From Ostreococcus lucimarinus (lineage: Eukaryota): a stretch of DNA of 64,000 bases. A program made the translations under genes and the position numbers. Location: assembly GCA_000092065.1 (NCBI GenBank), contig CP000594.1; one strand, given 5' to 3'. This document shows positions 5,415-62,111 of this stretch, piece by piece; the stretch's first letter is position 1; every line of letters begins with the position of its first letter. The notes beneath the pieces are model-generated. The model saw only the letters and a list, made by a program, of their open reading frames with translations, was not told the DNA's origin and did no database searches.

Positions 5415-7161
5415 CTACCCTCTGTCCGCGTTCAAATCCCCGTCGTTCTCTATCGGTGCCACCTCGTTTTCGTCCGTCTGTAAAGCCTCGAGCACGGCCC
5501 TTCGTTCCATCTCTACGTCGTGATCGATGGTAAATGTAATGCAGGCCAAAATAACGCCACACACAAACCAAAAGGTAAACGCCACGTTGAACGCCACTCG
5601 TCTGCCCATGCTCACGATGAGCAAGGCGACCAGCGCGGGTCCACCGCCTTTACCGACGTCGTCAATTTGTGAGTAAAATGCAAACATACTTCCACGAGTT
5701 TCCGGCGGGTTGACATTCAACAAAATTGCGCGCACATTGGGCGGTGTCACCGAGCAGAAAACGCCGCCGACGAGGCACGACAGGTACAAACCGACCCTCC
5801 CCGGACCGTAGTCGTTGACGTTGAGATAGTAATACGCTGGAAGTGCTCCAATAGCGGTCGTCAGTCCCATTAAAATCGGAAGTTCGCTCTTCTTCTTATT
5901 GTACATCCTCTGACCGATGAATCCTCCCCCAATGGTGCCGAAGGCGGAGCCCAAGCCGAAGACGGTGATGGCCGCCGTGGCGTTTTGCACCGTCATACCC
6001 TTTTGCTTATGTAAAAAGTCGACAAAGTACGAATTGAACACCCCCCACGGCACCGTGCCCGGCAAGCCTTGCGCAAGCACGAGGATGTTGGTCTTCACAA
6101 GCAATTGCTTCTTGACCTTGCTCCAATTCATCTTGGCTTTATACGAAACATCTCCCGCTTCGTCGCCGCTTTCGAGCTCGTCCTCCGTCTGCGCCGTCGT
6201 TTGTTCGTCGGAATCATCCCGCTCAGCGACATTTTTCGTTGAATTCCTTCGCATCGTCATTCGATGAACTTCTTCCTCCTGAGCGCCACGCTTGGGCTCG
6301 TCGACGACGAGAACCATCACCGTTGCGAGCACGACCGCGGGCGCGGATGTGAGGATGAACGGTAGTCGCCACCCGTACGCCGGCCCTACCGTACCCGCCA
6401 CCACTTGTCCGAGCGCCACTCCCGCTCCCGTCGCGATCGTCAAAAAACTCGCCACGTAACTCCGCTCATGACTCGCAAACAAATCTCCGCACCAACGAGA
6501 ACAAACAGCGGTAAAGCATCCGCCCACCGCGATGCCCTGGTCATCGCGCCGAAGCGCAAACAACTGCCAATAACTCGGTCACCCAATACGTCGCCATGCA
6601 CGGCCCTTCACCGATCAGTGTCGTCCAAAAGAACAAACGCACTCGACGCACTCGATCGGCGTAGTACCCGATGATCAGCGACGCCGGCGAGCCGACGACG
6701 AAAAACGCCAGCTGGAGCAACCCGCCCAGCTTGACATCCTTCTCTTTTTCATCCATCCCGAACTCCTCCGCTATGGCGCTCATGTTCGGCCCGATGAGGT
6801 TTTGATCGGCGTACAGGAACAGAGAAGTGGCCGTGATCAACCCGACGACGCCGTAGCGCTTCCATCGCTCGCGTCGCGCAAGTCTACGCCGTTGAAAACT
6901 CACGGAAGATGATGTCCCCGCCGCTGGGATAGCTTCGCCTTCGCGAGGCGCTCGGGACGCGTCGGAGGACTCAGAGGGCATGAAACTTCGCGCGCGCGTT
7001 AAAAGCGATACGATGCACGAACCGCGGCGCGCGCACCGTCGCGCGCGGGCGCGCGCCGATGTACGGCTCGCGCGCGGGCTGGGACGCTCAACAACTCTTT
7101 CGGGACGAGCGCGCGCGCGGCGAAATACACAACACATCATATTTATTGCACTAAGTTTCAT
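5415..7161 (-). CDS. MFS-type transporter (paralogue A of the gene at 44768..46261). As given, the reading frame is broken near 6565-6575
   Basis: Two ORF-track pieces (6541..7161 and 5415..6563, minus) together align along the full length of the intact paralogue at 44768..46261. Shared motifs: YADQNLIGPNMSAIAEEFGM...KLGG, GIAVGG, YGWRLPF, VPWGVFNSYF, LLNVNPPETRGS. They join only if one T is removed from gagttattgg near 6570. Confidence 0.8.
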
Positions 7162-7191
7162 CGAGCGCTCGCGACCAGTCGCGCGGAATCA

Positions 7192-8037
7192 TTATTGACG
7201 ACCTCCTGAGCGCTGCAAAGCGGCGAGTTTCGCTTTAGTCGCCACGAGTTCGCGGCGGAGCGCGGCGTTTTCCTCTTCGAGCGCTCGCATCGCGCTCTCG
7301 CGCTTTTCGCGACTTCTCGCCGCGCTCTCGCGGTTACGGAACAGCCGCTCTTGCATGCGGAGCGCTTTCTCGGCTTCGGTCTCTTTCGGGGCGCCTTTCG
7401 GCTTCCGTCCCATCTTGAGCGGGGCGATGGCTTGTCGAAACGCCGGAGGCGTGGCGATGCCGCTGCGCTTCTTCAACCGCTTGGGTTCGTAGGACACGCC
7501 CGGAACGGTGGGAACTATCATCATCGACACCCGGGACGGCGCACTCCCCGTCGTTTTCGTCGTCGTCGTTTTCTTCACCGCGGTCGCCCTCCCGTTCGTC
7601 GCCCTCTTCGCCTTCGCCTTCGCCGTCTTCCCCGCCGTCACCGTCGCCGTCGTCGTCGCCGCTTCATCCCCCCCGGCGTCCGCCAGCGCCAGCGCCGTCG
7701 TCAACTGCATGAAATTCATCGTCGGCAGGCTCGGCAGGCTCGGCAGGCTCGGCTCGCGTCCCCGCGCCGTCCCGCTCGCGCCGCTCGAATTAATCTTCGC
7801 CCACACGTCTCCCATGCTCTGCCGTCCCGCCTCGTCCGGCAATCGATCGAATATTTTCGCGTCGATCGTCGACGCCTGTCGCGCCACCGCCGTCGCCACC
7901 TCGCGCATCGTCGCCGTCGCCGCGTCCGCGCCTCGTCCGAGCGCGTCCAGCGTCAGCCCGAGCGCGGGGTCGTCCGCGTGCGCGCTCAGCGTCGGGACGA
8001 GCTCGCGCGCCCATTTACGCAGCGAATCATCGCGCAT
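7192..8037 (-). CDS. bZIP transcription factor
   Basis: C-terminal basic region plus leucine zipper: KALRMQERLFRNRESAARSREKRESAMRALEEENAALRRELVATKAKLAALQ (N-x7-R basic motif, heptad Leu). Real coding probably begins at the ATG at 8037 (MRDDSLRKWAREL) or 8094. The ORF-track extension to 8487 overlaps the divergent neighbour and is GC-rich read-through. TAA at 7192. Confidence 0.7.
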   Translation of the reverse strand: MRDDSLRKWARELVPTLSAHADDPALGLTLDALGRGADAATATMREVATAVARQASTIDAKIFDRLPDEAGRQSMGDVWAKINSSGASGTARGREPSLPSLPSLPTMNFMQLTTALALADAGGDEAATTTATVTAGKTAKAKAKRATNGRATAVKKTTTTKTTGSAPSRVSMMIVPTVPGVSYEPKRLKKRSGIATPPAFRQAIAPLKMGRKPKGAPKETEAEKALRMQERLFRNRESAARSREKRESAMRALEEENAALRRELVATKAKLAALQRSGGRQ

Positions 8038-8144
8038 CACCGCGTCGTCACCGTCGTCCGTCGTCGCGTCGCGTCGCGTCGCCGCGCGCGGCATCGCGTC
8101 GCGTCGTGCCGCGTCGCCGCGCCGATCGACCGGTCGCGCGCGTC

Positions 8145-8166
8145 GATATCGCCACGTGGCGATATC
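8145..8166. promoter_or_regulatory. Perfect 22-bp palindrome GATATCGCCACGTGGCGATATC centred on a CACGTG G-box/E-box, in the bidirectional promoter between the bZIP gene and the coiled-coil gene
   Basis: Seen directly; the reverse complement is identical. It sits about 110 bp upstream of the bZIP ATG (8037) and about 285 bp upstream of the divergent gene ATG (8452). Confidence 0.4.
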
Positions 8167-8451
8167 TGGATATTCGACGAGTCCCGACCCGTCGATCGAG
8201 CCCAGATCCGATCGCGCGGGTGCCGACCGACGCCGCCGCGCGCGACGGCGACGGTTCGCGCGCGACGGTATTTTTGGACGGCGCGCGACGGCGCGCGACG
8301 GCGCGCGCGCGCAGAGCGCGGCGCGCGACGCGCGGGCGAACGCGCGCGACGGTGCCGGCGACGCGCGCGGCGACGCGCGGTCGGCGCGCGACGGCGCGCG
8401 CGAGGAAACGGACGCGCGAGGACGCGACGGTTCGTCTCGCGCGCGGACGCG

Positions 8452-10842
8452 ATGGGAGGCGCGCGCGACGACGACGTCGCGACGCACGCGGAGCGGGCGC
8501 GACGGGAGGCGCGAGCGATCGAACGGCGAGCGACGCGGTTGGAGCGACGCGCGGAGGCGCTGCGGGCGCGGCGAAAGGCGCTCGGGACGGAGGCGCGGGA
8601 GGAGGACGTGGCGGCGGCGCGGTGCGCGGCGGAGGCGGAGCGCGAGGAGGCGAGGATTCGAGCGCGCGGGCGCGGTGAGACGGTGGAATCGCTGCGGGAG
8701 AAGCGAGACGCGGTGATGAGGACGCTAGAGGAGGCGAGACGGCACGAGGCCGAGCGGTTGGCGCCGATGGTGGTGAGCGCGCGGGAGGAGTGCGAGATGT
8801 TGCGCGAGGAAATCGAGGGATGCGGGAAGCGCGCCGAGGCGCTGACGGGGAGCAGAGACGAGCGCGAACGACGCGCGTGCGAGGTCGAACGCGCGTGCGC
8901 GAGCGTGCGAGAGGCACTGAAAATCGAGCGAGAGAGATTAAAGTGTGAGAAAGCGGTGTTGGGGAAAATACGAGCTGAAAAAGACGCACTGTTTGAGACG
9001 TTGACGCGCGCTCGAGCCGACGCGGCGACGCTCGAAACCCGCGCGGAGACGCTTCGATGCGCAGAAACCGATGCAGAGACGTCGGTGCGACGCAACGAGC
9101 AAGAATTGAGCGAACACGTGAGTAAGAACGCGAAGTTTGACGAGCAGCTGTCGACCGCGGAGAGAGGTTTAAACGATCTCAAGGCGCTCTTGGAGCGGGA
9201 ATCGTTGGCGCGAGACGAAATCGCCGCCGAGGGCGTGCGCCGCGAGCTCGATCGACGCGCGTGTCAGAAGTCTTTGACTCGAGCCAAGCAGACGTCGCTT
9301 CGTGAGACGCGTGCAAACGCACATCTTACGTATCTCGTGAACGAAATGTTGACGAACGCACGCTCGATTGCCGACATTGTCGAGGACGTCGAAGGGACAA
9401 AGGCTGCGCTCGAACGTGAGCTCGCCACGGCGGTTCGCGACACCAAGCGTACCATAGAAGAGCAAAACGCGCTCAGACTCGACGTGAACGAGCGTAGGGA
9501 AGAGTGCAAGGTAGAAATCACCAAAGGAGATTTGCTTGCGCACACCGTGACAGTCACCGTGCGCCAAGAAATAGCAGATTTAGAAGATGAGGTAAAATGT
9601 CTTCGTCGCGAGGAGGCGGCGAGAAATCGAATACAAAAGTACGTCGCCGACAGGGTCTCGCGCGCGATGAAGCGTCACCAAGGCGTGCAGCAAAACATAG
9701 CACAACTAAAATCGCTATTGCGTATCCGCGATGCGGAGATGATGGATGTGAAGTCAAATATCGACGACGCGCGAGAGCGCCGCTCGCACTTTGAACGCCT
9801 GCGAGAATTGACGACGACGCAACGCGACGCGTTCGCGACGATCGTGAGAAAATCTGGCGTCATCGCCGGAGCTACTCGAGAAAAGAATGAATGTTTACAT
9901 TTGAAAACGTTCGAGCTCGAGCGTCAAGCGCAAGAGAAAGATTGGGAAGTTTCCGCGGCGCGCGGAGAGACAGATGCGAAGAAGCGCGAGAGGGATGCGC
10001 GCCGAAATCAAAACGACGCCGTCTCGCACGTCATCTTGCGCGCCAGAGCGGACATGGAGGTGAGTGAAACCGAACTCGGAAAACTACAAAACGAGCTCAA
10101 GGCCGGGAAGTGCGATCAAGAGCTTTTATTCGAGCAATCAAAGGCGCTTGTGAAATCACGTCAGGCAGTCGCCATGGAGTTGCTCGACCGAAACGACGAG
10201 TTGTGTCAACTGTGCGATCGTATCGCCACGTCCGAAGACGTCAGCCGGCAGTGCGAAGAAGAGCTCGCGCTGCGTGTACATGAATATGAAACACTACGCC
10301 GTCAAGTACACGACCTAGAGCGTTCCCTGATCGTCGCGCGGCGAAACGTCGCCGCCATACCGCGCTACCAAGCCGAGATTTCGAGCAAGCGCTCGACGCT
10401 ATACGAGATGCGCGTCTCGGCGGAGAATCTGAGTCAGCGATTGGAAGATCCGAACGAGCACACGCGGTGGCGATTAATTCATGGTCCGAAGGGTGAGCAA
10501 GAAAACGACGTTGACGTGGACGTTTTCAACGATAAGCTTGCGAGCGTGGGATCGAGAATTCAAGATCAAGAGCGCGAGCTCGCGAGGCGTCGACTGAGAT
10601 GTCAAGACATCGATCGAGAGATTGAACGTTTGCGAGCGGTCATCGCCGAAAATGCAGACGAAGCGATCGAAACTGCGTCGTCGCTCAATCGAGCGAAATC
10701 CAAGCTCTCGGCCGTCGAGCGAGCGCTCCTCGCCGCGGTGTCCGAACTCACCATGTATCGAGCGCTCACCGCCGCGCTCGCCGACGCAAAATCGCGAAAC
10801 ATCGCCGAGATCGATGCCTTACGCTTGAGTTTAGAGACGTAA
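8452..10842 (+). CDS. Long coiled-coil protein (about 797 aa), possibly an axonemal/ciliary coiled-coil protein (CCDC39/40 or CFAP58-like). Family assignment is tentative
   Basis: Continuous heptad-rich sequence (E/R/K/L/A-rich; many ExLxxLxxE segments). Composition is lower GC than surroundings from about 9200 onward, and it ends with TAA. Only the part from the ATG at 8452 is taken as coding. The ORF-track extension back to 7351 is antisense to the bZIP gene. Confidence 0.55.
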   Translation: MGGARDDDVATHAERARREARAIERRATRLERRAEALRARRKALGTEAREEDVAAARCAAEAEREEARIRARGRGETVESLREKRDAVMRTLEEARRHEAERLAPMVVSAREECEMLREEIEGCGKRAEALTGSRDERERRACEVERACASVREALKIERERLKCEKAVLGKIRAEKDALFETLTRARADAATLETRAETLRCAETDAETSVRRNEQELSEHVSKNAKFDEQLSTAERGLNDLKALLERESLARDEIAAEGVRRELDRRACQKSLTRAKQTSLRETRANAHLTYLVNEMLTNARSIADIVEDVEGTKAALERELATAVRDTKRTIEEQNALRLDVNERREECKVEITKGDLLAHTVTVTVRQEIADLEDEVKCLRREEAARNRIQKYVADRVSRAMKRHQGVQQNIAQLKSLLRIRDAEMMDVKSNIDDARERRSHFERLRELTTTQRDAFATIVRKSGVIAGATREKNECLHLKTFELERQAQEKDWEVSAARGETDAKKRERDARRNQNDAVSHVILRARADMEVSETELGKLQNELKAGKCDQELLFEQSKALVKSRQAVAMELLDRNDELCQLCDRIATSEDVSRQCEEELALRVHEYETLRRQVHDLERSLIVARRNVAAIPRYQAEISSKRSTLYEMRVSAENLSQRLEDPNEHTRWRLIHGPKGEQENDVDVDVFNDKLASVGSRIQDQERELARRRLRCQDIDREIERLRAVIAENADEAIETASSLNRAKSKLSAVERALLAAVSELTMYRALTAALADAKSRNIAEIDALRLSLET

Positions 10843-10963
10843 ACGAAACGATCTTGATGACGTGAGCGATTACGACGACGACCACGACGACGCGCGCTTG
10901 GACGAACGCATTCAAGCTAAAAGAAAAGAATTACAACCGCTGGGTCTTCGCGCGGTGCTCACC

Positions 10964-11239
10964 CTAACTCGCTAGTATTCCCAGTAGCACCAACACGCCC
11001 GCGATCGCGCTGTACTTGAGCGTCGTAAAAATCAACGCCCACGTCACGCTTATCAGCTTCACCCCAACGACCGCGAACCACACACCGAGCAATCCAAACA
11101 AAACCCCCACCGCCGCGCCCTCGGGCGTGAGCTTGTCCCCGCCCGGCAGCTCGCTCGTCGGCATGCTGAACACGTTGGTATCCGCCTTGTATCGCTGTTG
11201 GTACTTGAACTGATCCAAAAACCACGCCGCTTCGGACAT
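10964..11239 (-). CDS. Small hypothetical membrane protein (about 91 aa, two C-terminal TM helices)
   Basis: MSEAAWFLDQFKYQQRYKADTNVFSMPTSELPGGDKLTPEG, followed by two hydrophobic helices (AAVGVLFGLLGVWFAVVGV, ISVTWALIFTTLKYSAIAGVLVLLGILAS). ATG at 11239. The upstream part of the track ORF is Arg-rich GC read-through. Confidence 0.4.
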   Translation of the reverse strand: MSEAAWFLDQFKYQQRYKADTNVFSMPTSELPGGDKLTPEGAAVGVLFGLLGVWFAVVGVKLISVTWALIFTTLKYSAIAGVLVLLGILAS

Positions 11240-11534
11240 TTGCACGTCTTTCTGCTCTTCTTCGCGCGCGCGACGACGGCGTGGCGATTTCGCTCGGACG
11301 AGGGCCGTTGAGGTTGGCGTTGGGGTTCGCACGCACCGCGAGTTCGGGACGCGGACGCGCACGCCGGCGCGCGCACGGTGCGCAACGACATCTGATTGAT
11401 GTCTCGGCGCGGTCGCGCGAGGCTGCGTCACGAGTTCGAGCGAGGCGCGCACTGCGGCGAAGGCTGGGTCGCCCAGCGAGCGAGCGTCGAGAGTAACTCG
11501 AGAGTCACGAAAGCAATGAATCAATCAAAATCAG

Positions 11535-12506
11535 CTATGTTTCCGTGGTGACGTACGTGTACACGTCTCCCGATCGCCCGAATCCTAGGGGTAGTTTTTT
11601 ACCCACGATGCCCGCGTAATCGCCGACGCTCCATCGGACGCACCGCTCGTGGAGCGCGTGCGCGTGCGAACCCGGCTCGATGTTTGGATTATTCAAGAAC
11701 TCGTCCACGCTCGCCCACTTCGCGCGCTCGATCTCTGTTTCCTGAATCTTAATCTCCCTCGACGCTCCATCCTTGACGCGCAGGCCGACGCAAAAGAATA
11801 AATCAGATTTGCCAAACAACCCAAAGTGGCCGTGTCGACACCCCACGACGGCGTCGAACGTCGTCTCGATCCCAGTCTCCTCCAACACTTCCCGCACCGC
11901 CGCGTCGGGAATGTCCTCCCCAGCCTCCAACAACCCCGTCGGCATCTTCCACAGATCTCTCCCGCTCGCCGGACCTCGTCGTTCCTGCACGAGGAGCACC
12001 TTTTCGTTTTCGCCGTCGTACACAAACGCCCCGACGCCAACCTGATGCGACGCATTATTCGGTATCGTCGACGCCTCATCGCTCGGCAACCACGTCGTCA
12101 TCATCACATACGTTCTTTCGGCGTGATGAAACTCAAATCCGCGCTCCTTCGCCACCGGAACCAACCGCGCGTCGTCGAGCGCGAGCTTCAGCCACACCCC
12201 TCGCGCGCCGCTCGCGCGCCACGTCGCCAACCACCCTCCCAGCGTCGCGTCGAACGCCTCCGGCGTGCGCGCCGCCCTCACGAACGCATCGTGCGCGTTA
12301 TCGACGATGATCCCACCGTATCGATCGATCGTCCACGGCGCGTTCGTCGCCGTCGCCATCGACGTCCCCGCGGTCGCCGTCGTCGTCGTCGTCGCGTCGC
12401 GTCGTCGCGTCGCCTCGCGCGTCGCGCCGTGGCGCGTCGTTTTTCGCACCGTCGCTCGAGCGCGTCGTCGCGCGCACGCGACGAGCGTCCTCGCGAGCGT
12501 CGACAT
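11535..12506 (-). CDS. Nudix hydrolase (plant NUDT2/6/7/10-type ADP-ribose/NADH pyrophosphatase-like) with N-terminal targeting-like extension
   Basis: Nudix box GLLEAGEDIPDAAVREVLEETGI (GX5EX7REUXEEXGU). Pre-Nudix domain WLKLALDDARLVPVAKERGFEFHHAE. The N-terminal region is Arg/Thr/Ala-rich (MSTLARTLVACARRRARATVRKTTRHGATREATRRR), suggesting a transit peptide. Alternative start at 12359 (MATATNAPW). Confidence 0.75.
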   Translation of the reverse strand: MSTLARTLVACARRRARATVRKTTRHGATREATRRRDATTTTTATAGTSMATATNAPWTIDRYGGIIVDNAHDAFVRAARTPEAFDATLGGWLATWRASGARGVWLKLALDDARLVPVAKERGFEFHHAERTYVMMTTWLPSDEASTIPNNASHQVGVGAFVYDGENEKVLLVQERRGPASGRDLWKMPTGLLEAGEDIPDAAVREVLEETGIETTFDAVVGCRHGHFGLFGKSDLFFCVGLRVKDGASREIKIQETEIERAKWASVDEFLNNPNIEPGSHAHALHERCVRWSVGDYAGIVGKKLPLGFGRSGDVYTYVTTET

Positions 12507-12705
12507 GCGCGGCGCCGCGCGACCGCGCGCCGCGCGCGCGTCCGCGCGCCCACACACGCGGGTGTCGCCCCGCCACATCCCGGCACCCATATACATACCA
12601 TCAAACACACCCAAAGTACGCATACAAACCACATACGAAATACCACGCGAAATCCATCATTAAAATCAGGCACCCCCCGCCGCGCCCCATCGCGCGACAG
12701 GCGCG

Positions 12706-12717
12706 TCGATTTCGAAA
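12706..12717. promoter_or_regulatory. 12-bp palindrome GATTTCGAAATC in the Nudix/RPA1 divergent promoter, next to an unusual A/C-rich tract (about 12590-12670)
   Basis: Seen directly. Located about 60 bp upstream of the RPA1 ATG (12774). The function is unknown. Confidence 0.25.
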
Positions 12718-12773
12718 TCCCGCGTCGCCCGCGCGCCACTCCGCGACGCCGCGCGCGCCCGAGCGCACGCGCG

Positions 12774-15466
12774 ATGCCGCCCGCGCTGACGCCGAACGCG
12801 ATATCCAATATTCTCGAACAGACCCACGGATCGCAGGACTTCAAACCCATCGTCCAAGTGTTCGATCTGAAGGAATTGAAAACCAAACCCGACGCCGACG
12901 ACGCCGCGAAGCGATTCCGCGTCCTCGCGTCCGACGGTGGATTCGCGGCGCAGGGATTGTTCGGGGCGGAGTTGAACGCGATGTGCGAGCGAGGGGAAAT
13001 TACGAAATTCACGGTGCTGCGGTTGAGAGAGTACATCGTGAACGATCTGAACGGGAGACGGTGCGTGCGCGAGATGGGTTGGGATGGGCGGCGCGGCGCG
13101 GCGCGGCGCGGCGCGAGGGGCGAGACGAGACGCGCGAGGATGGAGACGCGCGATCGAGGGATCGCGATGATCTTGGATGGAAGCGAGGAAGGCGGCGCGA
13201 TGCGCGAGGGGGGTGACTGACGATCGTGCGAACGGACGAATGGTTTGAACGTAGGATTTTGATCGTCATGGACGCCGAGGTGATGGATCGGTACGACGCC
13301 GTCATCGGACAGCCGCGGGTGTGGCAGCCGGGGACTGGGACGAACGCGTCGACGGGGATGAACGCGGGGGGGATGCAACAGCAAAGAAACGCGTACGGAG
13401 GAGCGCCGGCGGCGCAGGTGGAAGGCTACGGGTCGGGTGGAGGGAACGGCGCGAATCTGGCGACGGAACCGCCGCGCGCGAGCGGTGGCGGGTACGGTGG
13501 CGGCGCGCCGGCGGCGCAGGGGCAGTATCGTCGAGATGGTGGCGCGGTGGCGCGCAATGAGCAGCCGAGGTCCATCACGCCGATCCATGCGTTGAACCCG
13601 TACCAGAACCGTTGGACTATTCGCGCGCGAATCACGACTCCGTTGGAGTTGCGCTCGTATTCGAATGCGAAAGGCGAAGGTAAGGTGCTCGGCTTTCAAG
13701 TGCTCGATGCCGACGGAACGGAGATCAAGTGCGTGTGCTTTAACGACACCGCCGTGCGCCTCGCGGGGGAGTTACGTCAAGGCTTGGTGTACGAAATTTC
13801 CAAGGGAGCAATCGTCACGCCGCGCGACCCGCGGTACGCGATTTATCAGTACGAAATTAAGTTGGATAACCACGCGACGTTCGTGCCGTGTCCAGACGCC
13901 GAACGCGACATCAAGAAGATGGTATACAAGTTCAAGAAGCTTTCTGAACTCGACGCGCTCAACGCCGGAGATATGGTGGATGTCATTGGCATCGCATACT
14001 CTGTGGGTGATTTGACGACGATCATGAAGCGCGACGGTTCCGAAACTTCGAAGCGTTCTGTGATGATTCGCGACGACTCGGACACATCCATCGAGTTCAC
14101 GCTTTGGGATCCGCACTCAGTCGAGATTGGCGGGCAAATCGAAAGCTTGATCGCTAGCGGCGAAAAACCCGTCATCGCGGTGAAGAGCTCTCGATTGGGC
14201 GAGTTCCAAGGCAAGAACATGGGCACCGTGAGCAGCACGATGGTAGAAATAAATCCCGACAGTTCCGAGGCGACGCGCATGCGCGTTTGGTTTGATCAAG
14301 GCGGCGCCGATAAAACTTTCAACTCCTTGAGCGGTTCTGGCGGTGGCGGCGGCAAAGGCAGTGGTGAATTGCTCTCGTTCTCGACTGTGAAAGAGATCGG
14401 TGAAGAACTCGTGGCTAAAAATGAGGGCGTGGCGTACCTGAGTTGCTGCGGTATCATAAAGCACATCAAACTCGGCGCGGAAGGTAACTTCTATCCCGCG
14501 TGTCCGTTGCTTAATGGTGAACGCACGTGCCAAAAGAAGCTGCGTAAAGATGACTCGACTGGTGAATGGAAGTGCGAACGTCACGCCGGTGAAAAAATCG
14601 AAGCCGCGGATTGGCGTTACATGTTTAGCATGGTTTGCATGGATCACAGCGATGAGTATTGGGTGAGCGTTTTCGGTGACAAGGGTGACAAGATTTTCGG
14701 GATAAGCGCCGCTGAAATGAAGGAAATCTACGACCGTGAACCGGAGCGATACGAAAACATGATCAGTGACGCACTGTTCAACGATTACTCTCTACGCGTT
14801 AAGGTCGCCGTTGACAACTACACCGACGTACCCCGCGCCAAGGGCAGCTTGGTTGAAATCGAGCGCGTCAACTACGTAGACATGAGCAAGAAGTTGATCG
14901 GCAAGATTGCAAAGCTTCACGCTGGCGAAGAACCCGAAGTGTACGTGCCGCCTACGAAGAAGCGTGCTTCCGATGTCGGTTACGGGCAGGAGAACAAGAT
15001 GCCGGCGTTCAACGGCGGTTGGAACCAAGCGGGTGGGCAAGCCAACGGTGGTGGCGCGAGTGCCGCGAACGCCGCGAACGCAACTTGCTACAAGTGCGGT
15101 CAGACCGGTCATTTTGCGGCAGCCTGCCCGAGCGGTGGCGGCGGCGGCGGCGGTGCGTCGTACAACCAATTCAATGGCAACGGCGGCGGTGGCGGCTTCA
15201 ACAACAACGCTCCGAAGAAGGGCGCTTGCCACAAGTGCGGCGGAGAGGGACACTGGGCGCGCGACTGTCCGAACGCGGCCTACATGGGCAACGGCAACGG
15301 CGGTAATCAACCGGTGCACAACGGCAACGGCTACGGTGGTGGCGGCTACGGTGGCGGCGGCGGCGGCTACGGTGGCGGCGGCGGCGGCTACGGCGGCGGC
15401 GGCGGCGGCTACGGCGGCGGCGGCGGCGGTTACGGCGGTGGTGGCTACGGCGGCGGTGGTTTTTAA
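12774..15466 (+). CDS. RPA1: Replication protein A 70-kDa subunit (RPA1) with C-terminal CCHC zinc knuckles and a Gly/Tyr-rich tail. Two exons: 12774..13060 and 13255..15466
   Basis: Exon 1 encodes the RPA70N OB fold (ISNILEQTHGSQDFKPIVQVFDLK...RFRVLASDGGF...ITKFTVLRLREYIVNDLNGR). The donor CG|GTGCGT at 13061 and acceptor cgtag|G at 13254 restore ...NDLNGR-RILIVMDAEVM, matching RPA70N. Exon 2 holds DBD-A (ITPIHALNPYQNRWTIRARIT...), DBD-B, and DBD-C with the zinc ribbon (CCGIIKHIKLGAEGNFYPACP...C..ERH). Then two CCHC knuckles (CYKCGQTGHFAAACP, CHKCGGEGHWARDCP) and a (G)nY repeat tail. TAA at 15464. Confidence 0.85.
13061..13254 (+). other. Spliceosomal intron of RPA1 (194 nt, GTGCGT...TAG)
   Basis: Phase-2 intron inferred from the frame change between ORF 11826..13220 and ORF 13226..15466, and from the restored RPA70N alignment. 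Confidence 0.75.
15325..15466 (+). repeat. Tandem GGC/GGT-rich coding repeat encoding (GGGGGGY)n, a low-complexity tail of RPA1
   Basis: ggcggcggcggcggctac units repeated about six times. Protein: YGGGGYGGGGGGYGGGGGGYGGGGGGYGGGGGGYGGGGYGGGGF. Confidence 0.85.
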
Positions 15467-15552
15467 AATCAGATCACGAACAAACGCACGAACGCACGAA
15501 TAGATGACACGCGCATGTAACATGAACGAACGAATACAACAAATTACAAACA

Positions 15553-18321: not shown

Positions 18322-18426
18322 GACGGCGCGGCGCGCGCGGGTGTGAGGAGGACGCGCGGTCGACGCGCGCGAGCGGGACGCGAGGGGCGTCGGTTGACGT
18401 CGGTTCAGCGCGAAAGGTGCGTCGAT

Positions 18427-22115: not shown

Positions 22116-22195
22116 GCGCGCGCGCGTCGACGCGCGCCGCGATGCGCGGTCGCGGCGCGGTCGCATCGCGATTCCGTCGCCACCGCGGCGTAACA

Positions 22196-28585: not shown

Positions 28586-29182
28586 ATGTACCACGTCCTC
28601 ATCGCCGCTTTCGCCACCTGCGTCGCGTGCGAGCTCTTCGAGACCGAGAAAATCTACGCCACCGATGATTACGCGATCGCCAAGCGTCGCATCGAGCTCG
28701 CGCGCGAGCGCATCGCCGTCGCCGAGGCTCAAGTTCGCGAAAAAGGCGAACGGAAGAGCGCGCGTTTGGAGCAAGCGCAAGTCGCGCTCGTGCACGCCGA
28801 GCAAAAGATGAAACAGATGTGCATGGCCACGGGACGGACGTTCATGATCGTTACGTTCATCGGCGCCACGGCGGTCAGATGGTACTACTCGTACCCCGAA
28901 CAAAAGACTGGGTTCCGACTGCCGTTCGCCGCGCCGATGCGCTGGGCGCTCGGAACTGGCGAAGACGAACGCGATTTAAATCCCACCGCGGCGTATTTCA
29001 TCGTGACGTATCTCTGGCGCGTGGTGTTCGGGGATGTGCTGGGGCGTAAGACGAGACAGATCGAGGCGTATTGGAGCACAAAGGACACGGAACGTTACAT
29101 GGCCGCGCATCGACAAACCTTCAACTCGTTGACTCGCGACTCTACGATGGCGGTGGCGCCAAAGGTGAAGAAAATGCGATGA
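28586..29182 (+). CDS. GET1/WRB-like tail-anchored protein insertion receptor (CHD5/Oxa1-superfamily topology)
   Basis: TM1, then coiled coil (DDYAIAKRRIELARERIAVAEAQVREKGERK; compare WRB DEFARYARLERKINKMTDKL), then TM2 FMIVTFIGATAVRWYYSYP (compare WRB ISLIWKYYSVP), then a TM3 hairpin. 198 aa; ATG at 28586; TGA at 29180. Confidence 0.55.
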   Translation: MYHVLIAAFATCVACELFETEKIYATDDYAIAKRRIELARERIAVAEAQVREKGERKSARLEQAQVALVHAEQKMKQMCMATGRTFMIVTFIGATAVRWYYSYPEQKTGFRLPFAAPMRWALGTGEDERDLNPTAAYFIVTYLWRVVFGDVLGRKTRQIEAYWSTKDTERYMAAHRQTFNSLTRDSTMAVAPKVKKMR

Positions 29183-44033: not shown

Positions 44034-44767
44034 CCGCCGTCCCGCGGCTGCAATACCAAACTTCACAACGTACCCTCACACCCCCGCGCGCGCGGCGCCG
44101 TGCGATCAGCGATGCTCTCGACGCGCGCGCGAGCGGCGCCGCCCTCCTTCGCGCGCGTCTCGAGCCGCTCGCGTCGCGCTCGCGTCCCCGCGGCGTCGCC
44201 GCGCGCCGTCGAGTTCGGCGCGCGGGACATCGCTTCCCTTCCTCGCGTCGCCGCGTCGTTCGCATCCGCCGGAAAACTAAAGTCGCCGGCGCCCCAGCGC
44301 GCGTCTCGCGACGTCAAAGCCCGCGGCGTGCCCGTTCTCTCGTCGCTTCCGCTCGTCGGCTGGGCGTTTTCGTCCCCAGTCGTGCTCGTGGTCTACGTTT
44401 TCGTCGCGATTAGGATGTATCTCGGCTACGACAGGACCACGTTCGGAAGCGGCGTGCCCAAGATCGCCATGTGCGGCCTGTGGCCCGTCTTGGCCGCGCT
44501 ATCGGCGTCGTTTCGCGAGAATTTAAAGCGCTCTTTGTAAGACTTGAGGATTTGAATGCGCCCGGGACAGGCGTCAGAACGCGACGCGACGTCGCGTCGT
44601 CGCGCGCGCGTCGTCGGACCCGCGCGCGCGCTCGAAGGCGGAAAAGACTCGCGCGCGCGATCGCGCGCGCTCGAACTCGCGCGAATCGCGACGCGCGCGT
44701 CGATAGGCGCGCGTGAACGTCGACGCGCGGTGACAGTTGCGTCGAGTAAATCGCCGCGCGGCGGCGC

Positions 44768-47282: not shown

Positions 47283-48559
<1,277 letters not shown>

Positions 48560-53283: not shown

Positions 53284-54498
53284 ATGAGTTCGCCGTTCGG
53301 GGCGAGGATCGAGACGCCGGCGTTGAGCGGGAAGTCGGCCAAAGCGATGCGGAACGCGAGCGCGGCGTGGGGTTGGACGTGTGTGCTCGTGTTGATGTAC
53401 GAGGCGCTGGTGCGAGGGATCGATGAACGGCGCGTGCACATGCTGAACGTGTATTATCAAGCGCCGACGGTGGCGACGCTGGCGTGTTTGATGTGGGCGC
53501 ACAACTTGCGAGTGTGGCACCGGTTGCGATTGACGCCTTCACCGTTGATTTGTTTTGGGGTTGAGCAAAACGAGTCGGTGACGTTTGAGCACGTGTATCG
53601 ATTGGCGCACGCGAGCGCGTTAGCTCTCTTGACCTCGGCGGTTTTGTTTCTATACGCGTACGACGTGGACGAACCGTTCGCCGCGACGACGATTTTGTTG
53701 GCGACGTATTTCGTTCCAATACTCGTCGCCATGTGGCCAAATAGAACGAAAGGGCTTGGAGAATTACGGTCGTATACGCGACGGTTGCTTTATAACTGCT
53801 TCACTCCCTTGGTGCGGCCGGTCGGGTTCGCTGATTTCTTCTTCGCCGACATCTTGTGTTCGTTGGCGAAATCTTTGAGCGATTTAGAACGCGTTGTTTG
53901 CAGCGTGCGACACCGCGTGATGCTCATACACACCGCCGCGGGTAAGTGCGGTGATAGAAGTATCATGATTCCCGTCGTGCTCATCATACCGTCCGCGATT
54001 CGACTGCTGCAGTGTCTGAGGCAGTTTGCCGACACGCGCGAGCCAAAGTGTCTGTACAACGCATTCAAGTACACGAGCGCGTTCCCGGTCATCATCATCT
54101 CCGGATTCCGGCACTTCATCGATCACGACGATTGGGTCTTCTTTTGGCGTCCGCTTTGGATCGGGTTTTGCGTGTTCAACACGTGTTTTAGCTTTTACTG
54201 GGACATCAAGCACGACTGGGGGCTGTCGTTGCTCGGCGGCGGCGCGCCTCGGCGACCCGGCGAGAAATTTCCGTTTGGATTGCGCGAGCGTCGCATTTAC
54301 GGCGCACCCAAGGTGTATTATCGGGCAATTTGGTTGAATTTCTTCTTGCGGATAAGTTGGACCTACAAGCTCGCGTCGCACTTGCGACATCATAGCGCCG
54401 TGCTCTGGCTCGTTACCGCCGCTGAAATCACGCGACGATTTCAATGGTCGTTGTTCCGCGTCGAGGTGGAATATTTGAGACGATTGCAGCACGCGTAA
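53284..54498 (+). CDS. EXS-domain membrane protein (ERD1/XPR1/SYG1 C-terminal family; ERD1-like, no SPX domain)
   Basis: EXS signature GFADFFFADILCSLAKSLSDLERVVC, multi-TM with the conserved W/F-rich C-terminal helices (WIGFCVFNTCFSFYWDIKHDWGL, YYRAIWLNFFLRISW). 404 aa; TAA at 54496. Confidence 0.7.
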   Translation: MSSPFGARIETPALSGKSAKAMRNASAAWGWTCVLVLMYEALVRGIDERRVHMLNVYYQAPTVATLACLMWAHNLRVWHRLRLTPSPLICFGVEQNESVTFEHVYRLAHASALALLTSAVLFLYAYDVDEPFAATTILLATYFVPILVAMWPNRTKGLGELRSYTRRLLYNCFTPLVRPVGFADFFFADILCSLAKSLSDLERVVCSVRHRVMLIHTAAGKCGDRSIMIPVVLIIPSAIRLLQCLRQFADTREPKCLYNAFKYTSAFPVIIISGFRHFIDHDDWVFFWRPLWIGFCVFNTCFSFYWDIKHDWGLSLLGGGAPRRPGEKFPFGLRERRIYGAPKVYYRAIWLNFFLRISWTYKLASHLRHHSAVLWLVTAAEITRRFQWSLFRVEVEYLRRLQHA

Positions 54499-55877: not shown

Positions 55878-55926
55878 ATCGGCGGTACGGGCGAGAACGG
55901 GCGAGATGCCGACGCGCGAGTATCAG

Positions 55927-58900
55927 ATGAGCGATTATCACACGTACGAGGCGATCGGGAAAGGGAAGCACAGTACGGTGTATAAGGGGCGACGGAAGAA
56001 GTCGATTCAGTACTTTGCGATGAAGAGCGTGGAGAAAGGACAGAGAAATCGAGTGATGCACGAGGTGCAAGTGATGAAGGCGTTTTCCCACGAAAACGTG
56101 TTGAAATTCATCGCGTGTTACGAGACGCAAAATCATCTGTGGTTGATTCTGGAATACTGCGTCGGAGGTGATTTGTTGACGCTGCTGTCGCAAGATCTCA
56201 AGCTTCCCGAACCTTCCATCATGACGTTCGCGCGCGATATGTTCGTCGCCGCGCGAGAGTTGCACAGTAAAGGACTGGTGCACTGCGATTTAAAGCCAAG
56301 TAACATGTTGCTCGACGAAGAAGGGCGGATTAAGATTTGCGGATTCGGACTCAGTCGCAAGGTTTCCACTGTCGTGGCGTCTTCGGGTACGCCCACGCAG
56401 CTGTCGCGTCGAGGGACACCGTGTTATATGGCTCCGGAGATGTTTACACAAGAGGGCGTGCACTCGTACGCGACGGACTTGTGGGCGTTGGGGTGCGTGC
56501 TGTATGAGTGCGCCACCGGACGACCCCCGTTCACGAGTACGTCGTTGACATCATTGATCGAACAGATTTTAGAGCACGAGCCCGCACCGTTGCCCGCGGC
56601 GTATGGTACGACGTTTAAGAATTTGGTCTCTGGGTTGCTCATCAAGCGCCCGCACGCTCGTTTGACGTGGGACCAAGTCATTAACCATGAATTTTGGACC
56701 GAGCGCGGAGGGCAATACTTGGACGATCTTGGTGACTTAGTGACGCTTAGACTCCCACCGCAGCCTTCATTCGACGCGCTCGCGGCTAAACTGAAGAGCG
56801 AGGATTTGGCGGCGAGACTGCGAATGCTTGGAAACGCAAGAGCGTCGGGGGCGGTGGACGTGCGCGATTCTTTCATGCCCGTCTTGACGCAAAGTTTACG
56901 AGATAGCGTAAACGTCTCGCGACTGTCGAGGATTGCGCGTTCAAATTTGGAGCGAGAAGAAGTCGGTTCGTACGCGCCTAGCGGTGCTGCAGCTATCGAA
57001 GGCGACCCCTTGCAAGTCGCTGCCATTCACGAAGACGTGGAGTTGGAGAATCCAGACGCTGAGCTCAACTTCACCGCTCCGAGCGGGAACGACGATTTGG
57101 ACGTGGACATGGAAACCGAAGACGTTATCATACCTTCAGCTCCCAAAACGCCTCCTAGGGGAGGTCGTCGTGGTGACGATGATTACGCAGATGAAAACAG
57201 AGCAGAGAACTTTGCCGATCCCGCTGAGTCGTTTGGTGACGAGATGCAGTCGGACAGCGATGACGCAACTCGCATCGTGCTCACACCTTCCGACCGCGGA
57301 CGCTATGTTAGTAGACACGCGTTCGCCGGGCTTCGACGAGTCGCTCGTTACAGACGGCAGATGATGAGTTCGAAGAAACGTCGTCTTCGATGCGTCGCTT
57401 GGCGCCGCTTCCGGCGGAGACGCCGGCGGTGATCGGGAGGACAGAAAGTAGGATGCCTTCGCTGGCGGCAAGGAATGATGTGCTGGCAAAAAGTGTCGAT
57501 TACGACAAGTTCAAGAAGCTGTGCACGCATTCGACCGATTTGACCGTGCGACCCATCGTGTCCAATCACAGAATTGAAGTGGTGAAAGACGCGCCTCACG
57601 ATCCAGAAAAGTTGCCCTTCAAAGAATTGAGCGTGGACAAAATGTTGGCGACTTCTCAGAGCGAGCTCGAAGCGTTTCTGACTCGTATTTACCGCTCCGT
57701 GGCGCACCCTTCAAACGTTCAAGAAAAAGTTAACACTTTGGCTTATTTCGAGACGTTGTGCACCGAGGCGTCGAGCGCGAACGTCTTGGCGAATTCATCC
57801 TTGATGTCAATGTTCGTCCGAGTGCTCGGTAGCAGCAAATCTCCACCGTTGAAGATCAAGCTTTGCAGCATCATGGGCTTGTTGATGCGACATGCGACGC
57901 ATATTAGCGATGAGTTCGCGAAGAGTGAGGCTGCAAAAGTACTGGCGGGCACTATGAGCGACGAAAACTCTCGCGTGAGACGCCGAGCTATGGCGGCGCT
58001 CGGGGAACTGTCGTTTTACGTCGCGACGCAGCAGAGGCCAGACGCATCACAAGTATGGGGTATCACCGACAGTGTGATTGAGGTCTTCATCAAGACGTTA
58101 GAAGAGGAAGAAGATGAAATTACTAAGCACTACGCGTGCAAGAGCATCGAGAACATAGTCTCTCACGAGGGCTCAACGTGGATACAAGACGCATTCGCGG
58201 AGTGTCGCGTCGTAAGTGTTTTGTTTTCAATCGCGACGAATGACGCCGTAGACGACCAGCTTCGTGGTACTTCGGCAAGTGCGCTCGCAAGAATCGTTCG
58301 GCTCAAGTCGGAAACGCTTCACCCACTGGTCGGCGAAGAGGATTGCGATGGTTCAAATGCACGCGATGGCCTGGTGAAAATGCTTAGAGATCGTGAGAGA
58401 AAAGTACAACAGGCGGCACTCAACGTGTTGTGTAGAGCGCTGGTGGATGAAAAGTCGCGCTTGATTGCCACTATCATGGAAGTTCAAACGCTTTTGCCCA
58501 TTCTTGCTGGATTGTACGAGCGAAGTCAAACGCCCATCATCAAAGCCAAGTCGTTGCTCGCGATGGCGCTTTTGATTCGCGCGCATCCAAAATGGTTGCA
58601 ATCGCTTTGCAAGGCGCGCGTTTTGCCGATGTTGGATCGTCAACCGACGCAAATGGACCCTTATTTACAAGAATGTTTCGATACGTTCGTCACCACCGTT
58701 GTGGCCCTCGTGCCGGTCGTGAACACTGGTATCTTGCAGTACGTCGAGCGATCGCTCTCCACGGGATTGTCATCGGAAAACGCCATGCGACCGCAAGCGT
58801 TTGAGTTATTTCCTGTGCTCATTCATTTGCTGCAATCGACTGTCATGCGACCAAAAGTATTGACCAGTGCGTTTGTGATCGACATTGCGAAGTACATTCG

Positions 58901-59720
58901 CGCCGCTGAGGCTGAAGAGCATTACCCTGGTCGCGACGAGCTTCGCGTGGGAGTTATGGCGTTGCTCGAGACGTGCGCACAGTGTACGAATGAGTTGATT
59001 CATAAGGTTGATGCGTTGACGCGTCACTTATTACCGGCGCTGTGCGACTTACTCGAAGGAAGTGCGCACGTTGAAACTCGTTTCTTGGCGCTGAAGCTCA
59101 TCTACGAACTCTTGCTGCCATTGCGTTTGGATTTGGATATCGCCACGCAAAGCGGTCTCGATCGAAAAGTCGTTGCGCACCACTTGGACCAGCTCTTGAT
59201 GCAAGACTTGTTCCCGATGTGCCCTGCGTTGATCGATAGTGAAGACCCAATCCCATTGTACGCTTTGAAACTTCTCAGCGGCACGCTGGAGATTGAGCCC
59301 GCGCTTTGTCGCGAAATCATCGCCTTGGGTTTGGCGCCAAGATTCTTTGAGTTTCTCTCGCTCGAGCACACGAACAACAACGAGCACAACATACATCTGT
59401 GTCTCGCCCTCGCTCGATGCAAAGCGCTCAGCACGCAATCATTGTGGGACTTCGACGCCCCTGCGAAAGTCGCGCAAGTATGTGCGTATAGCTACGAGCG
59501 AAACGTCACGCAGTTTGTCGAGCCCGCGCTCGGCATCGCCGCCACCCTCCTTCGCCGCGCCGCCGCCGACGCGCCTCGCGCCGCCGGAGACGCCGTCCCA
59601 TCCGAAATCACCCCTCTCCTCGAGGTCGCGCCGACGCTTCGTCGGCTTGCAGCGACCATACCCGACGGTGCGCTCGCGCGCGATATCACTCATTCCCTCG
59701 ACACCTTCAACGCGCATTAA
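55927..59720 (+). CDS. RUNKEL/ULK4-like protein: N-terminal Ser/Thr kinase domain plus C-terminal armadillo/HEAT repeat region. The two halves are in different frames as given (junction about 57300-57360)
   Basis: Kinase: MSDYHTYEAIGKGKHSTVYKGRRKKSIQYFAMKSV...HENVLKFIACYETQNHLWLILEYCVGGDL...HSKGLVHCDLKPSNMLLDEEGRIKICGFGLSRK...RGTPCYMAPEMF...DLWALGCVLYECATGRPPF, near-collinear with Arabidopsis RUNKEL. ARM part: DLTVRPIVSNH...MFVRVLGSSKSPPLKIKLCSIMGLLMRHATHISDEF...RRRAMAALGELSFYVATQ...LYPALIDSEDPIPLYALKLL...NIHLCLALA, also RUNKEL-like. Either a 47-nt intron (57307..57353, GTTAGT...TACAG, phase 0) or indels join the frames. Confidence 0.85.
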
Positions 59721-59979: not shown

Positions 59980-61280
59980 ATGCCTCGAGATCACACCCGC
60001 GACGCCAAGCCGTGGACCGCGGAGGAAGATGCAGCGTTGTTGACGCTACAAGGCGCGCATGGGAACAGATGGAGCGAGATCGCGCGCGCGATGGGCACTC
60101 GGAGTGGACAACAGTGCGCACAGCGGTGGCGACACAAGGTCAACCCAGGGATCCGACGGGAGCGGTGGAGCGAGGAGGAGGATGAAAAGGTGCGAATGCG
60201 GTTCGATAACGTGAGCAAATGATATTGGTTACATGCGTTGTGTGCGCAGAACACAATTTTGGTCGCGTGGCGGGAGAGATATCGTCGAGTGGTCCCGCGC
60301 GGTCCCGCGTCGTCTCAAACGATTTGACTGGACGAAGAGAGCGATTTGATTTGACGTGACAGTTGAAGACACTGAAAGAGCGCTACGGGTCGAGATGGGC
60401 AACGATCGCGCGTGAAATGGGTGGTCGCACGGATCAGCAATGTATGGGACGGTGGAGACGACATCTCGATCCGACAGTGACTCGCGGCGCGTGGGCTCGG
60501 GACGAAGACGAGCTCTTGTGCGGGTTGTACGACGAGTACGGTCCGCGATGGTCATTCATCTGTCAGAGCGTTCCGGGTCGCACCGCGCAACAATGTCGCG
60601 CGCGATGGTTTCAAGTCGACGGTAAGCCCAGGGAAGAGCGCGATCATCGCCCGTCCAGGCGGCAATCGCCCGTCGAGACTTCATCTCATGGACCCGCGGA
60701 GGATCATCCAGCGCGGCGATTTTCCGATCATGAAGGGTTGGTGACGCGTACTTCGATCGATTCGATGCCCATGGCGAGTCTGTCGCCAACACCAGTCGCT
60801 GAAAAACGACCATTCAGTCACATTCTGGCCGAAGTCAGCGCGCGCACGACGCAAAAGACTGGATCGTTAATAGAATCCGCCTCCATAGCGACTGCGCTCG
60901 GGCGCGCTTCGCCGGCGACTCTCTCAAAGCGCAAACAAGTATCGACAGCGCTGGATCCGATGTCGCTTTGGCGCGACGTCGGCGGTACGAAAGCCGTCGG
61001 TAGCTTGGCGCCGACACTCGTGGAAGATGGTAAGCGCAAACGCGGACGCCCGTCGAAGACGGTGGACGCGCCGCGGTCGCCGATGGCGAGGCTTTCGGTA
61101 CAATCTCCTCGCGCATCATCGGTGTATGCACCGCGAACGCGCGCGCGAGCGTCGACGGCATCTGCATCATCCAAATCTACGCCTCATTCGTCAGTGATTG
61201 GTCGATCGACAGAAGAGGATAAACTCTCCGTTTTGCTCGGCGTCGCGCTCGGTCGAAGCGACGGCGCGGCGCCGCGTTGA
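59980..61280 (+). CDS. Three-repeat (R1R2R3) Myb-domain transcription factor. Exon 1 59980..60189, intron 60190..60362, exon 2 60363..61280
   Basis: R1 WTAEEDAALLTLQGAHGNRWSEIARAMGTRSGQQCAQRWRHKVNP. R2 (split by the intron after EEDEK) WSEEEDEK|LKTLKERYGSRWATIAREMGGRTDQQCMGRWRRHLDP. R3 WARDEDELLCGLYDEYGPRWSFICQSVPGRTAQQCRARWFQV. Donor AAG|GTGCGA, acceptor gtgacag|TTG. Confidence 0.8.
60190..60362 (+). other. Spliceosomal intron of the Myb gene (173 nt, GTGCGA...ACAG, phase 0)
   Basis: Restores a canonical Myb repeat 2. Confidence 0.75.
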
Positions 61281-61380
61281 ATCGGCTAGGGAAAAATAAT
61301 GTTGGTTTGCTGCTCGTGTTGTAACGACAAACTACGAAGAGAAAAACGTTTTTATGAGCGCTGGATTCGGGAGTCGATAG

Positions 61381-62111
61381 CTACGCCGCGACGCACTCGA
61401 GGAGCGCTTGAAAGTCCGCCTCCTCGTTCGCGTCGGGGAGGGCGTCAAAGCGCGCGTCGTCGAGCCACGCGAAATCGTCGATGTCAATCCCATCGAGGTC
61501 ATCTTGACTTTCTGAATGAATCCCCGATTCTGATTCCGCGCCGCGGGCGAGGTCGCCGTCCAGGCTCCCGAGCGCGCCCTCGACGTCGTCCGAGTTCGCG
61601 CTCGGCGAGTTCGCCCGTCGTCGTCGTTTGCGGTTGGCATATTCATCGCGCTTTTCTCGCCGGCGCGTGGCTCGTCCCCGCGCGTCGCTCCAAACGGGCC
61701 CTCTCCGACGCGTCGACGAGACGAATCCCTTCGTCTCCTCTTCGCGTCTTCGATAGCCCTCGCGACGCGCGCGAGTTCCGAGCGCGTAGTCCGGCTTCGC
61801 GACCGCGTATAATCCGCCCCCGACGACGACGGCGTCCGCGCCGGCGTCCGCTCCCCATCGCTCGCGCGCGACGACGCCACCCTTCCGTCCCATCCCGCGC
61901 GCCGCTCGCGCGTCAGCTCCGACAGCGCGTCCTTCAGCACCGCGTTCTCCGTCGCGAGCGCGCGCGTCAACCGCTCGAGCGCGTCCACGCGTCGCCGCGC
62001 GTCCCGCTCGAGCGCCCGCTTCCGCGCCCGCGACGCCGCGCTCGCCGCGCGATTCGCCTCGAGTCGACGCGCGCGTCGCGTCGCGTCGTCCGCGTCGCGC
62101 GTCGCCATCGC
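61381..62111 (-). CDS. bZIP transcription factor (second in the window). Basic region/zipper in one frame and acidic C-terminal region in another as given
   Basis: Frame A MATRDADDATRRARRLEANRAASAASRARKRALERDARRRVDALERLTRALATENAVLKDALSEL (N-x7-R basic motif plus heptad Leu). Frame B (ORF 61381..61893) ends with a classic acidic/hydrophobic activation-domain-like tail (DDLDGIDIDDFAWLDDARFDALPDANEEADFQALLECVAA) in a lower-GC stretch, with a TAG stop at 61381. The frame change is needed near 61890-61905. Confidence 0.5.

Follow-up and report, generated by a model that had tools for sequence, protein, structure and literature searches.

Why should eight deeply conserved genes lie broken within a single stretch of algal DNA? 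The question is raised by 64,000 nucleotides of Ostreococcus lucimarinus sequence (hereafter the window), in which a reading of the letters alone (the sequence-only reading) had reported small insertions, deletions or a nonsense codon in the genes for a transporter (MFS-A), CDPK, FolD, NRAMP, ADH3, an ABC1/ADCK kinase, a RUNKEL/ULK4-like kinase and a bZIP protein (bZIP-2). We find that seven of these eight genes are indeed broken and that the breaks are private to the window, while bZIP-2 carries no lesion and several of the reported coordinates and mechanisms need correction. Comparison with related sequences indicates that the seven breaks are most likely flaws of this sequence copy and not biology. 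We propose, with a probability of about 0.7, that the window contains consensus errors in a redundant, low-quality second copy of a region of the CCE9901 genome.

The window and its comparison set

The G+C content of the window is about 62%, and long open reading frames (ORFs) for eukaryotic proteins fill it densely. Its intact 792-aa helicase and its 404-aa EXS protein have exact residue matches in more than 1000 public metagenome assembly blocks. Members of the protein clusters are labelled Ostreococcus lucimarinus, and the CCE9901 proteins XP_001421234 (FolD), XP_001421235 and XP_001421242 (ULK4/RUNKEL-like) fall in the clusters of window proteins, identifying the window as O. lucimarinus nuclear DNA. 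A self-BLAST found no internal repeats in the window.

As a reference panel we used independent metagenome contigs with 99.2-99.8% identity to the window, 3-15 per site. Contigs L013-L015 span positions 1-16553, L041 spans 17600-20607, L001-L006 span 22373-44740, and L007-L012 together with L035-L038 span 43283-64000; the comparison leaves out 16553-17600 and 20607-22372. Ten further contigs (L042-L051, spanning 34100-54540) represent an environmental sub-lineage that carries the window's variant of a 142-aa protein and is the closest to the window. Break sites were checked by three-frame translation and multiple alignments (for MFS-A, MAFFT against L013-L015). Environmental contigs of 100-280 kb pass through the region unbroken. 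One panel member, L010 (ERZ10646527 contig_11810), aligns to window 43284-64000 at 97% identity with about 100 gap openings in 19 kb and resembles an uncorrected long-read assembly, in which the ADH and esterase genes are fragmented; the lesions of the window are much sparser.

Seven conserved genes carry breaks private to the window

The frame-breaking lesions are absent in 6-15 independent contigs across 41 kb of coding-dense sequence. By block, the private lesions are missing from 6 contigs at 22-45 kb, from 5-10 contigs at 43-64 kb, from 3 contigs at 1-16.5 kb and from the 10 contigs of the closest sub-lineage. The comparison contigs instead give intact gene calls for CDPK (645 aa), FolD (300 aa), NRAMP (569 aa), ABC1 (524/569 aa), RUNKEL (1270 aa) and the ADH exon (313/314 aa), and the CCE9901 proteins for MFS-A, FolD, ABC1 and RUNKEL are uninterrupted at the break sites and seem to be encoded by another copy of the region. 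In the comparison with independent assemblies that was proposed along with the original claim, the lesions of the seven genes are missing from every other assembly. The companion proposal, that transcripts should carry the corrected frame, finds agreement in one transcript-derived case, the MMETSP CDPK described below.

The MFS-A transporter gene (5415-7161, minus strand) was reported to hold a single extra T in GAGTTATTGG at about 6570; the gene is broken there, but the alignment with L013-L015 reveals seven private extra bases in 86 nt (plus-strand positions 6492, 6503, 6513, 6538, 6539, 6549 and 6577). This net +7 splits the ORF, which is 579 aa and intact in L015, into pieces of 206 and 382 aa. 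The CCE9901 model ABO99705 (P0126) reads SYWQLFALRAMTGIAVGGCLPLLFSLCGDLF over the break site. Separately, a segment of 31 residues (93 nt) that every environmental ORF encodes is missing from P0126; an excess of false introns with lengths divisible by three has been described for the O. lucimarinus annotation (PMC3475488), and the gap in P0126 is an example.

Three broken genes lie in the central part of the window. The CDPK gene (29273-31211, minus) has one private extra base within the EF-hand loop DTSGDNMVELGE, located at 29726 and not at about 29738 as first reported. At this site the coding strand reads GGTCCGAG in the window and GGTCGAG elsewhere, and the base is absent in L001-L006. Once base 29726 is skipped, residues 494 and 495 of the MMETSP CDPK (P0074) align continuously. 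The truncated CDPK product has no record elsewhere in the protein databases searched. In FolD (31336-32239, plus), the private extra C at 31683 (CCC for CC) is exactly as reported, by both three-frame translation and contig alignment. The intact environmental FolD (300 aa) is identical to CCE9901 ABO99527, and the frameshifted product past residue 116 has no match in a collection of 5.8 billion protein sequences. A 207-aa protein from an 11,446-bp ENA contig (P0368) aligns along 100% of its own length, at 50% identity, with the frameshifted FolD product of the window, and the contig of this related organism may carry a FolD frameshift at a similar place. The NRAMP gene (38087-39796, minus) carries a private in-frame TAG at 38914-38912, again as reported. 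Plus-strand base 38912 is C in the window and G in all other contigs, where Tyr295 is encoded by TAC. The gene calls of L001-L006, L042, L043, L047, L048 and L051 are intact at 569 aa, and contigs that start within NRAMP likewise have G at this position. Reassignment of TAG is ruled out for NRAMP, given that the relatives have TAC at that codon.

The remaining three breaks lie further downstream. A private extra base in the ADH3 gene, which encodes S-(hydroxymethyl)glutathione dehydrogenase (47917, minus; TTT for TT), was placed exactly by the sequence-only reading, as three-frame translation and contig alignment agree, and the environmental contigs have a 313/314-aa exon called across the site. 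The ABC1/ADCK kinase gene (51111-52821, minus) is broken as claimed, though at 52004 (AAA for AA on the coding strand, in GTGTTAAATCG) and not at the run of five T at 51978; CCE9901 ABO99718 (P0098) and the environmental P0091 show 100% identity on either side of 52004 with one base skipped. Finally, the break reported at about 57300-57360 in the RUNKEL/ULK4-like kinase gene (55906-59720, plus) is real and resolves into a pair of private one-base insertions, at 57288 (TT for T) and at 57328 (GGG for GG). All environmental contigs and CCE9901 ABO99535 have an intact 1270-aa gene.

Might these breaks be misread introns or programmed recoding (frameshifting, readthrough or editing) in genes that are expressed normally? 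The window does hold a real intron near the ADH3 lesion: 97 nt at 48289..48385 (minus; GTGCGC...CGGACTGAC...CAG), a feature common to all contigs. In addition, one of the eight genes, bZIP-2, has a conserved frame change that fits an intron (see below). For the other seven, homologous proteins align continuously over the breaks, and the surplus consists of the single bases given above with no intervening sequence. The extra bases occur in no relative and so show no conservation, TAG is decoded as an amino acid nowhere else, and the TAG codon is TAC in all relatives. For the seven genes, introns are ruled out by these continuous alignments and recoding by the contig comparison; as an explanation of the breaks, we regard normal expression through splicing or recoding as extremely improbable.

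A probable second copy of the region in CCE9901

If some of the broken genes are intact in CCE9901 proteins, where does the window belong? The EMC3-like gene (28586..29182, plus) encodes a product identical to CCE9901 ABO99561.1. The identity includes A104P and L110F, which result from the window-private G>C changes at 28895 and 28915, and this P104/F110 variant has no record beyond the window and ABO99561 in the databases searched. A second anchor is the 142-aa gene at 44112..44540 (plus), whose product is identical to CCE9901 ABO99565.1. However, CCE9901 has another EMC3 protein, ABO99526.1, which is of the common environmental type and is followed by ABO99527 (the intact FolD) and ABO99528 (the helicase). 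The intact ABO99535 (RUNKEL), ABO99705 (MFS-A) and ABO99718 (ABC1) are on the same 708,927-bp record. Two EMC3 proteins in CCE9901 reject the window as the sole CCE9901 locus. From these protein identities and from accession order, we infer that a region of at least 54 kb is present in two direct copies on the CCE9901 chromosome (708,927 bp), with about 67 genes between them, and that the damaged copy is the window. Searches of the accessible literature turned up no account of such a duplication in O. lucimarinus.

Accession numbering fits this layout and suggests what became of the broken genes. The two CCE9901 EMC3 genes are 67 entries apart by UniProt numbering and 35 by GenBank. From ABO99561 to ABO99565 the numbers advance by +6 (UniProt) and +4 (GenBank), where +9 and +5 would be expected, so that there is room for exactly the unbroken genes. 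Since the numbering fits the unbroken genes alone, CDPK, FolD and NRAMP appear to be unannotated in the window's copy, which bears out the earlier warning that automated gene models would suffer.

These identities also bear on a simpler origin, in which the window comes from some other low-accuracy assembly of a CCE9901-like strain, for example one of unpolished long reads, and no duplication is needed. Insertion-dominated single-base errors of the kind described below do look like raw long-read consensus. On the other hand, the two EMC3 changes of the window are exclusive to the GenBank protein ABO99561, CCE9901 has a second EMC3 (ABO99526) adjoining an intact FolD, and the gaps in the accession series match the broken genes of the window exactly. 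We consider this origin improbable.

The lesion spectrum favors error over mutation

To our proposal of a flawed second copy the following steps would belong. The consensus of a second copy of at least 54 kb would have acquired base-calling or assembly errors. About 15 of these would be over-calls and a few would be under-calls, each of a single base, and some would be miscalls, the NRAMP stop codon among them. These errors would split seven to nine genes, and annotators would hence have left CDPK, FolD and NRAMP unmodelled. The other copy, about 67 genes away, would hold the intact genes.

The private lesions have a distinctive spectrum. The private 1-nt changes comprise 15 insertions and 3 deletions. 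In 14 of the 15 insertions, the added base copies its neighbor (1 to 2 or 2 to 3), compared to 47% expected at random (P = 2e-4), and the insertions are clustered, with seven in 86 nt, two in 41 nt and two in 129 nt. Coding sequence, which takes 13 of the 15 insertions, is not depleted; indels that vary among the environmental contigs nearly all lie in non-coding DNA or have lengths divisible by three. Mutation-accumulation lines from four Mamiellophyceae gave 33 deletions, with an average length of 9.8 bp, and 15 insertions (PMC5455958). The insertion to deletion ratio of 15:3 in the window differs significantly from the 15:33 in these lines (Fisher P = 2e-4). Culture evolution is unable to supply so many changes, because an O. 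tauri culture acquired only about 11 changes genome-wide in 8 years (PMC4378021). The lesions favor error because they duplicate a neighboring base, cluster, hit coding sequence and are biased to insertion, and because the culture rate is too low. On these grounds, we infer that the differences are errors rather than mutations.

The sequence-only reading had likewise argued for error, and the lesions are error-like: they are private, clustered and do not spare coding sequence. Its supporting details fared less well. The affected runs are merely 1-2 bases long (growing to 2 or 3), so there is no true homopolymer context; the guess of a 454, Ion Torrent or nanopore platform finds no support; and bZIP-2 has to be removed from the list. 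The argument that real pseudogenization of so many genes would be extraordinary is weakened by the apparent second, intact gene set on the same chromosome, which would make decay non-lethal.

Several observations weigh against our explanation. The CCE9901 assembly is described as finished, which makes an error about every 4 kb across 54 kb surprising. Indels relate to substitutions as 18:69 among window-only differences and as 48:238 among real mutations, which is no significant difference (P = 0.42). The window-only coding substitutions comprise 28 non-synonymous or nonsense changes versus 16 synonymous ones, which relaxed selection fits as well as error does. Polymorphisms of the environmental contigs have a ratio of 24:21, and copy-specific and strain-specific changes are inseparable in the window-only set. 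The two-copy layout was derived from protein identities and accession order, rather than from a comparison of DNA. Lastly, real decay would be tolerable, given an intact copy elsewhere.

The last point leads to a biological alternative: a real segmental duplicate that spans at least 54 kb and arose in the lineage of CCE9901, its redundant copy decaying by neutral frameshifts, nonsense and missense changes. Intact MFS-A, FolD, ABC1 and RUNKEL genes and the environmental-type EMC3 are annotated on the same chromosome, as such a duplicate predicts. Copy-specific missense changes accompany the indels (A104P and L110F in EMC3, D1005H in RUNKEL), the 18:69 ratio of indels to substitutions resembles mutation-accumulation data, and the strain-specific V279 of RUNKEL is present in both copies, that is, in the window and in ABO99535, with D1005H an addition of the window. 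However, an insertion bias of 15:3 opposes the measured 2.2:1 deletion bias, and real deletions average 9.8 bp (PMC5455958). The private insertions are all 1 nt and sit at runs of 1-2 bases. Seven independent insertions in 86 nt follow no known spontaneous pattern. Variants of the second copy (EMC3 P104/F110, truncated CDPK, frameshifted FolD) occur in none of more than 1000 sample blocks that contain the locus, and the 100-280 kb environmental contigs run unbroken through the region. Ordinary neutral decay is, in our judgment, unlikely, although it is the strongest of the alternatives. Less likely still, the window would be a strain-specific duplicate (at least 54 kb) whose decay follows an unusual mutational route, with templated +1 insertions at non-repetitive sites, local clusters and strand-asymmetric G>C changes; a footprint of this sort might come from error-prone synthesis in break-induced replication.

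Parallels and consequences for gene models

Consensus errors of the kind we propose have a precedent in the same genus. The correction of the first-generation O. tauri reference from v1 to v2 by re-sequencing (Blanc-Mathieu et al. 2014, PMC4378021) likewise concerned gene models that were split or lost through reference errors. In the present case, by contrast, a region is apparently present twice, and the flaws accumulate in one of its copies.

Base-caller over-calls and compressions arise in low-coverage Sanger, 454 and long-read consensus sequences. As in the window, such errors include single-base insertions that repeat a neighbor, clusters within less than 100 nt (the poor tail of a read) and G/C miscalls in GC-rich DNA. 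Unlike typical homopolymer errors, however, the runs affected in the window are only 1-2 bases long.

Duplicated pseudogenes in recent human segmental duplications (PMC2978362) offer the biological parallel, as there too a block exists twice and one copy is disabled by frameshifts and a stop. The window departs from this parallel in that its spectrum (1-nt, clustered, insertion-biased) is not that of spontaneous mutation in this algal class and in that the decayed copy is unseen in nature.

For users of the O. lucimarinus reference, the consequence is that models of CDPK, FolD, NRAMP, ADH3, ABC1, RUNKEL and MFS-A are split, truncated or missing. A flawed copy can lead to false gene loss or, when both copies are counted, to false gene-family expansion. 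The broken genes are not lost from the O. lucimarinus genome, and the biological novelty is low; the main value of these results is in curation, as the lesion coordinates permit direct correction. More generally, abundant metagenome contigs can be used to proof-read a culture reference. If the lesions are real, they represent a rare dated case of block pseudogenization in one of the most compact eukaryotic genomes.

The frame change in bZIP-2 is conserved and probably an intron

The eighth gene is different. The lesion claimed in bZIP-2 at about 61895 does not exist: there is no private indel, and the frame change is common to all relatives. The gene (62108-61384, minus) has the same two-frame layout in all environmental contigs as well as in L039, L010 and L040, which are more distant. 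The basic-zipper part is in frame 0, and an acidic C-terminal part (ending in FQALLECVAA, stop at 61384-61386) is in the -1 frame (frame 2). L040 keeps the position of the frame-2 stop, the motif EA(D/E)FQALLECVA and EAEFQALLECVA. Frame 2 of both L039 and L040 contains a TAA where the window has 61788-61786, and downstream the substitutions between L039 and the window sit at frame-2 wobble positions.

We identified a 122-nt candidate GT-AG intron (61759..61880, minus; length 2 mod 3) that would join the bZIP exon in frame 0 to the acidic C-terminal exon in frame 2. A branch-like CGGACTAC lies 27 nt ahead of the AG, an arrangement that resembles the ADH3 intron. The homologous interval measures 197 nt in L040 (GT; 5' site AAG|GTGCCG) and 209 nt in L039 (GC), so the interior length is variable. 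Based on these comparisons, the frame change is probably a spliceosomal intron with a putative junction at these sites, and the predicted spliced product is a 201-aa bZIP protein. Protein database searches found no spliced or transcript-derived form of this protein. Nor did they find any NCBI or MMETSP protein for the gene, and the Ostreococcus references apparently lack an annotation of it. In metagenomes, the gene is called either as an unspliced 335-aa ORF in frame 0 or as a 170-aa ORF in frame 2.

The bZIP-2 layout recalls the bZIP mRNAs spliced by IRE1 (HAC1, XBP1, bZIP60 and CrbZIP1; PMC11077094), where the basic zipper and the acidic C-terminal part are also in different frames, the removed length is also 2 mod 3 and the switch point also lies in strongly structured, conserved RNA. 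Unlike these mRNAs, bZIP-2 has neither CxGxxG loops nor twin hairpins at the switch, and its frame change can be explained by an ordinary GT-AG intron that has a branch-like site. No CxGxxG is present in the frame-switch zone (61790-61650); the only two loop matches, at 61838 and 61832, are 6 nt apart and overlap. An IRE1-type twin hairpin was rejected, as the switch zone has no CxGxxG and the consensus fold is a single extended hairpin. Inspection by eye revealed no X_XXY_YYZ slippery site in bZIP-2.

An ultra-conserved block of about 130 nt covers the switch point (window 61790-61660, minus; L039 3643-3774; L040 1308-1427). Its predicted fold in the window is one extended hairpin with 42 predicted pairs and an apical 8-bp stem capped by a GNRA loop (GGGA); L040 has a GAAA loop on a stem of different sequence. 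A search of Rfam returned no match for the hairpin. The candidate 3' splice site (61759/61758) falls inside the 5' arm of the predicted hairpin, which could regulate splicing or intron retention and so give two alternative C-termini. With its 3' splice site buried in a conserved 120-nt hairpin, bZIP-2 may merit attention as a case of regulated splicing. The intergenic DNA upstream of bZIP-2 (62090-62600) is hypervariable: the environmental contigs differ there by numerous substitutions and small indels, while the flanking genes are nearly invariant.

Further private differences in the window

The window holds lesions beyond those first reported, at 11252, 40376, 60202 and 60330. The first two were recognized via ORF comparison and frame inspection. 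A private 1-nt deletion at 11252, in a small membrane-protein gene (about 10967-11430, minus), is a probable extra lesion that separates the start and a transit-peptide-like segment (MSLRTVRAP...) from the membrane body, as judged against two comparison contigs (L014 and L015). A private 1-nt deletion at 40376 (G5 to G4; plus), in the N-terminal extension of a DIRP/LIN9-like gene, is a possible extra lesion that counts only if translation really begins at the long start (970 aa, or 815 aa in MMETSP). The private 1-nt insertions at 60202 and 60330 (plus) are in non-coding DNA upstream of a Myb gene. No more frame-breaking differences turned up in genes with recognized domains in the contig comparison. 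A 12-nt deletion at 42762 is also present in L047 and is therefore natural.

Among window-only substitutions, G>C changes outnumber C>G changes on the plus strand (11 versus 3; P = 0.06). The G>C sites are 28895, 28915, 30294, 35533, 38912, 41839, 44016, 48916, 58920, 62420 and 63404, and this set includes the NRAMP stop codon and all three missense changes proven specific to the window's copy. The excess could be a class of miscall or a strand-biased mutational footprint. Seven private substitutions are packed into 22 nt at 15340-15361 (two comparison contigs), which could be a local patch of low quality or the trace of a small gene conversion or other complex event.

Finally, three window proteins have exact matches on NCBI records of 104,430,999 and 140,429,288 bp: P0016 (EXS, 53284-54498), P0242 (EMC3) and P0287 (an esterase, 46338-47228). 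Exact O. lucimarinus proteins on these two records suggest that Ostreococcus DNA contaminates, or is integrated in, the chromosome-scale assemblies of other organisms.

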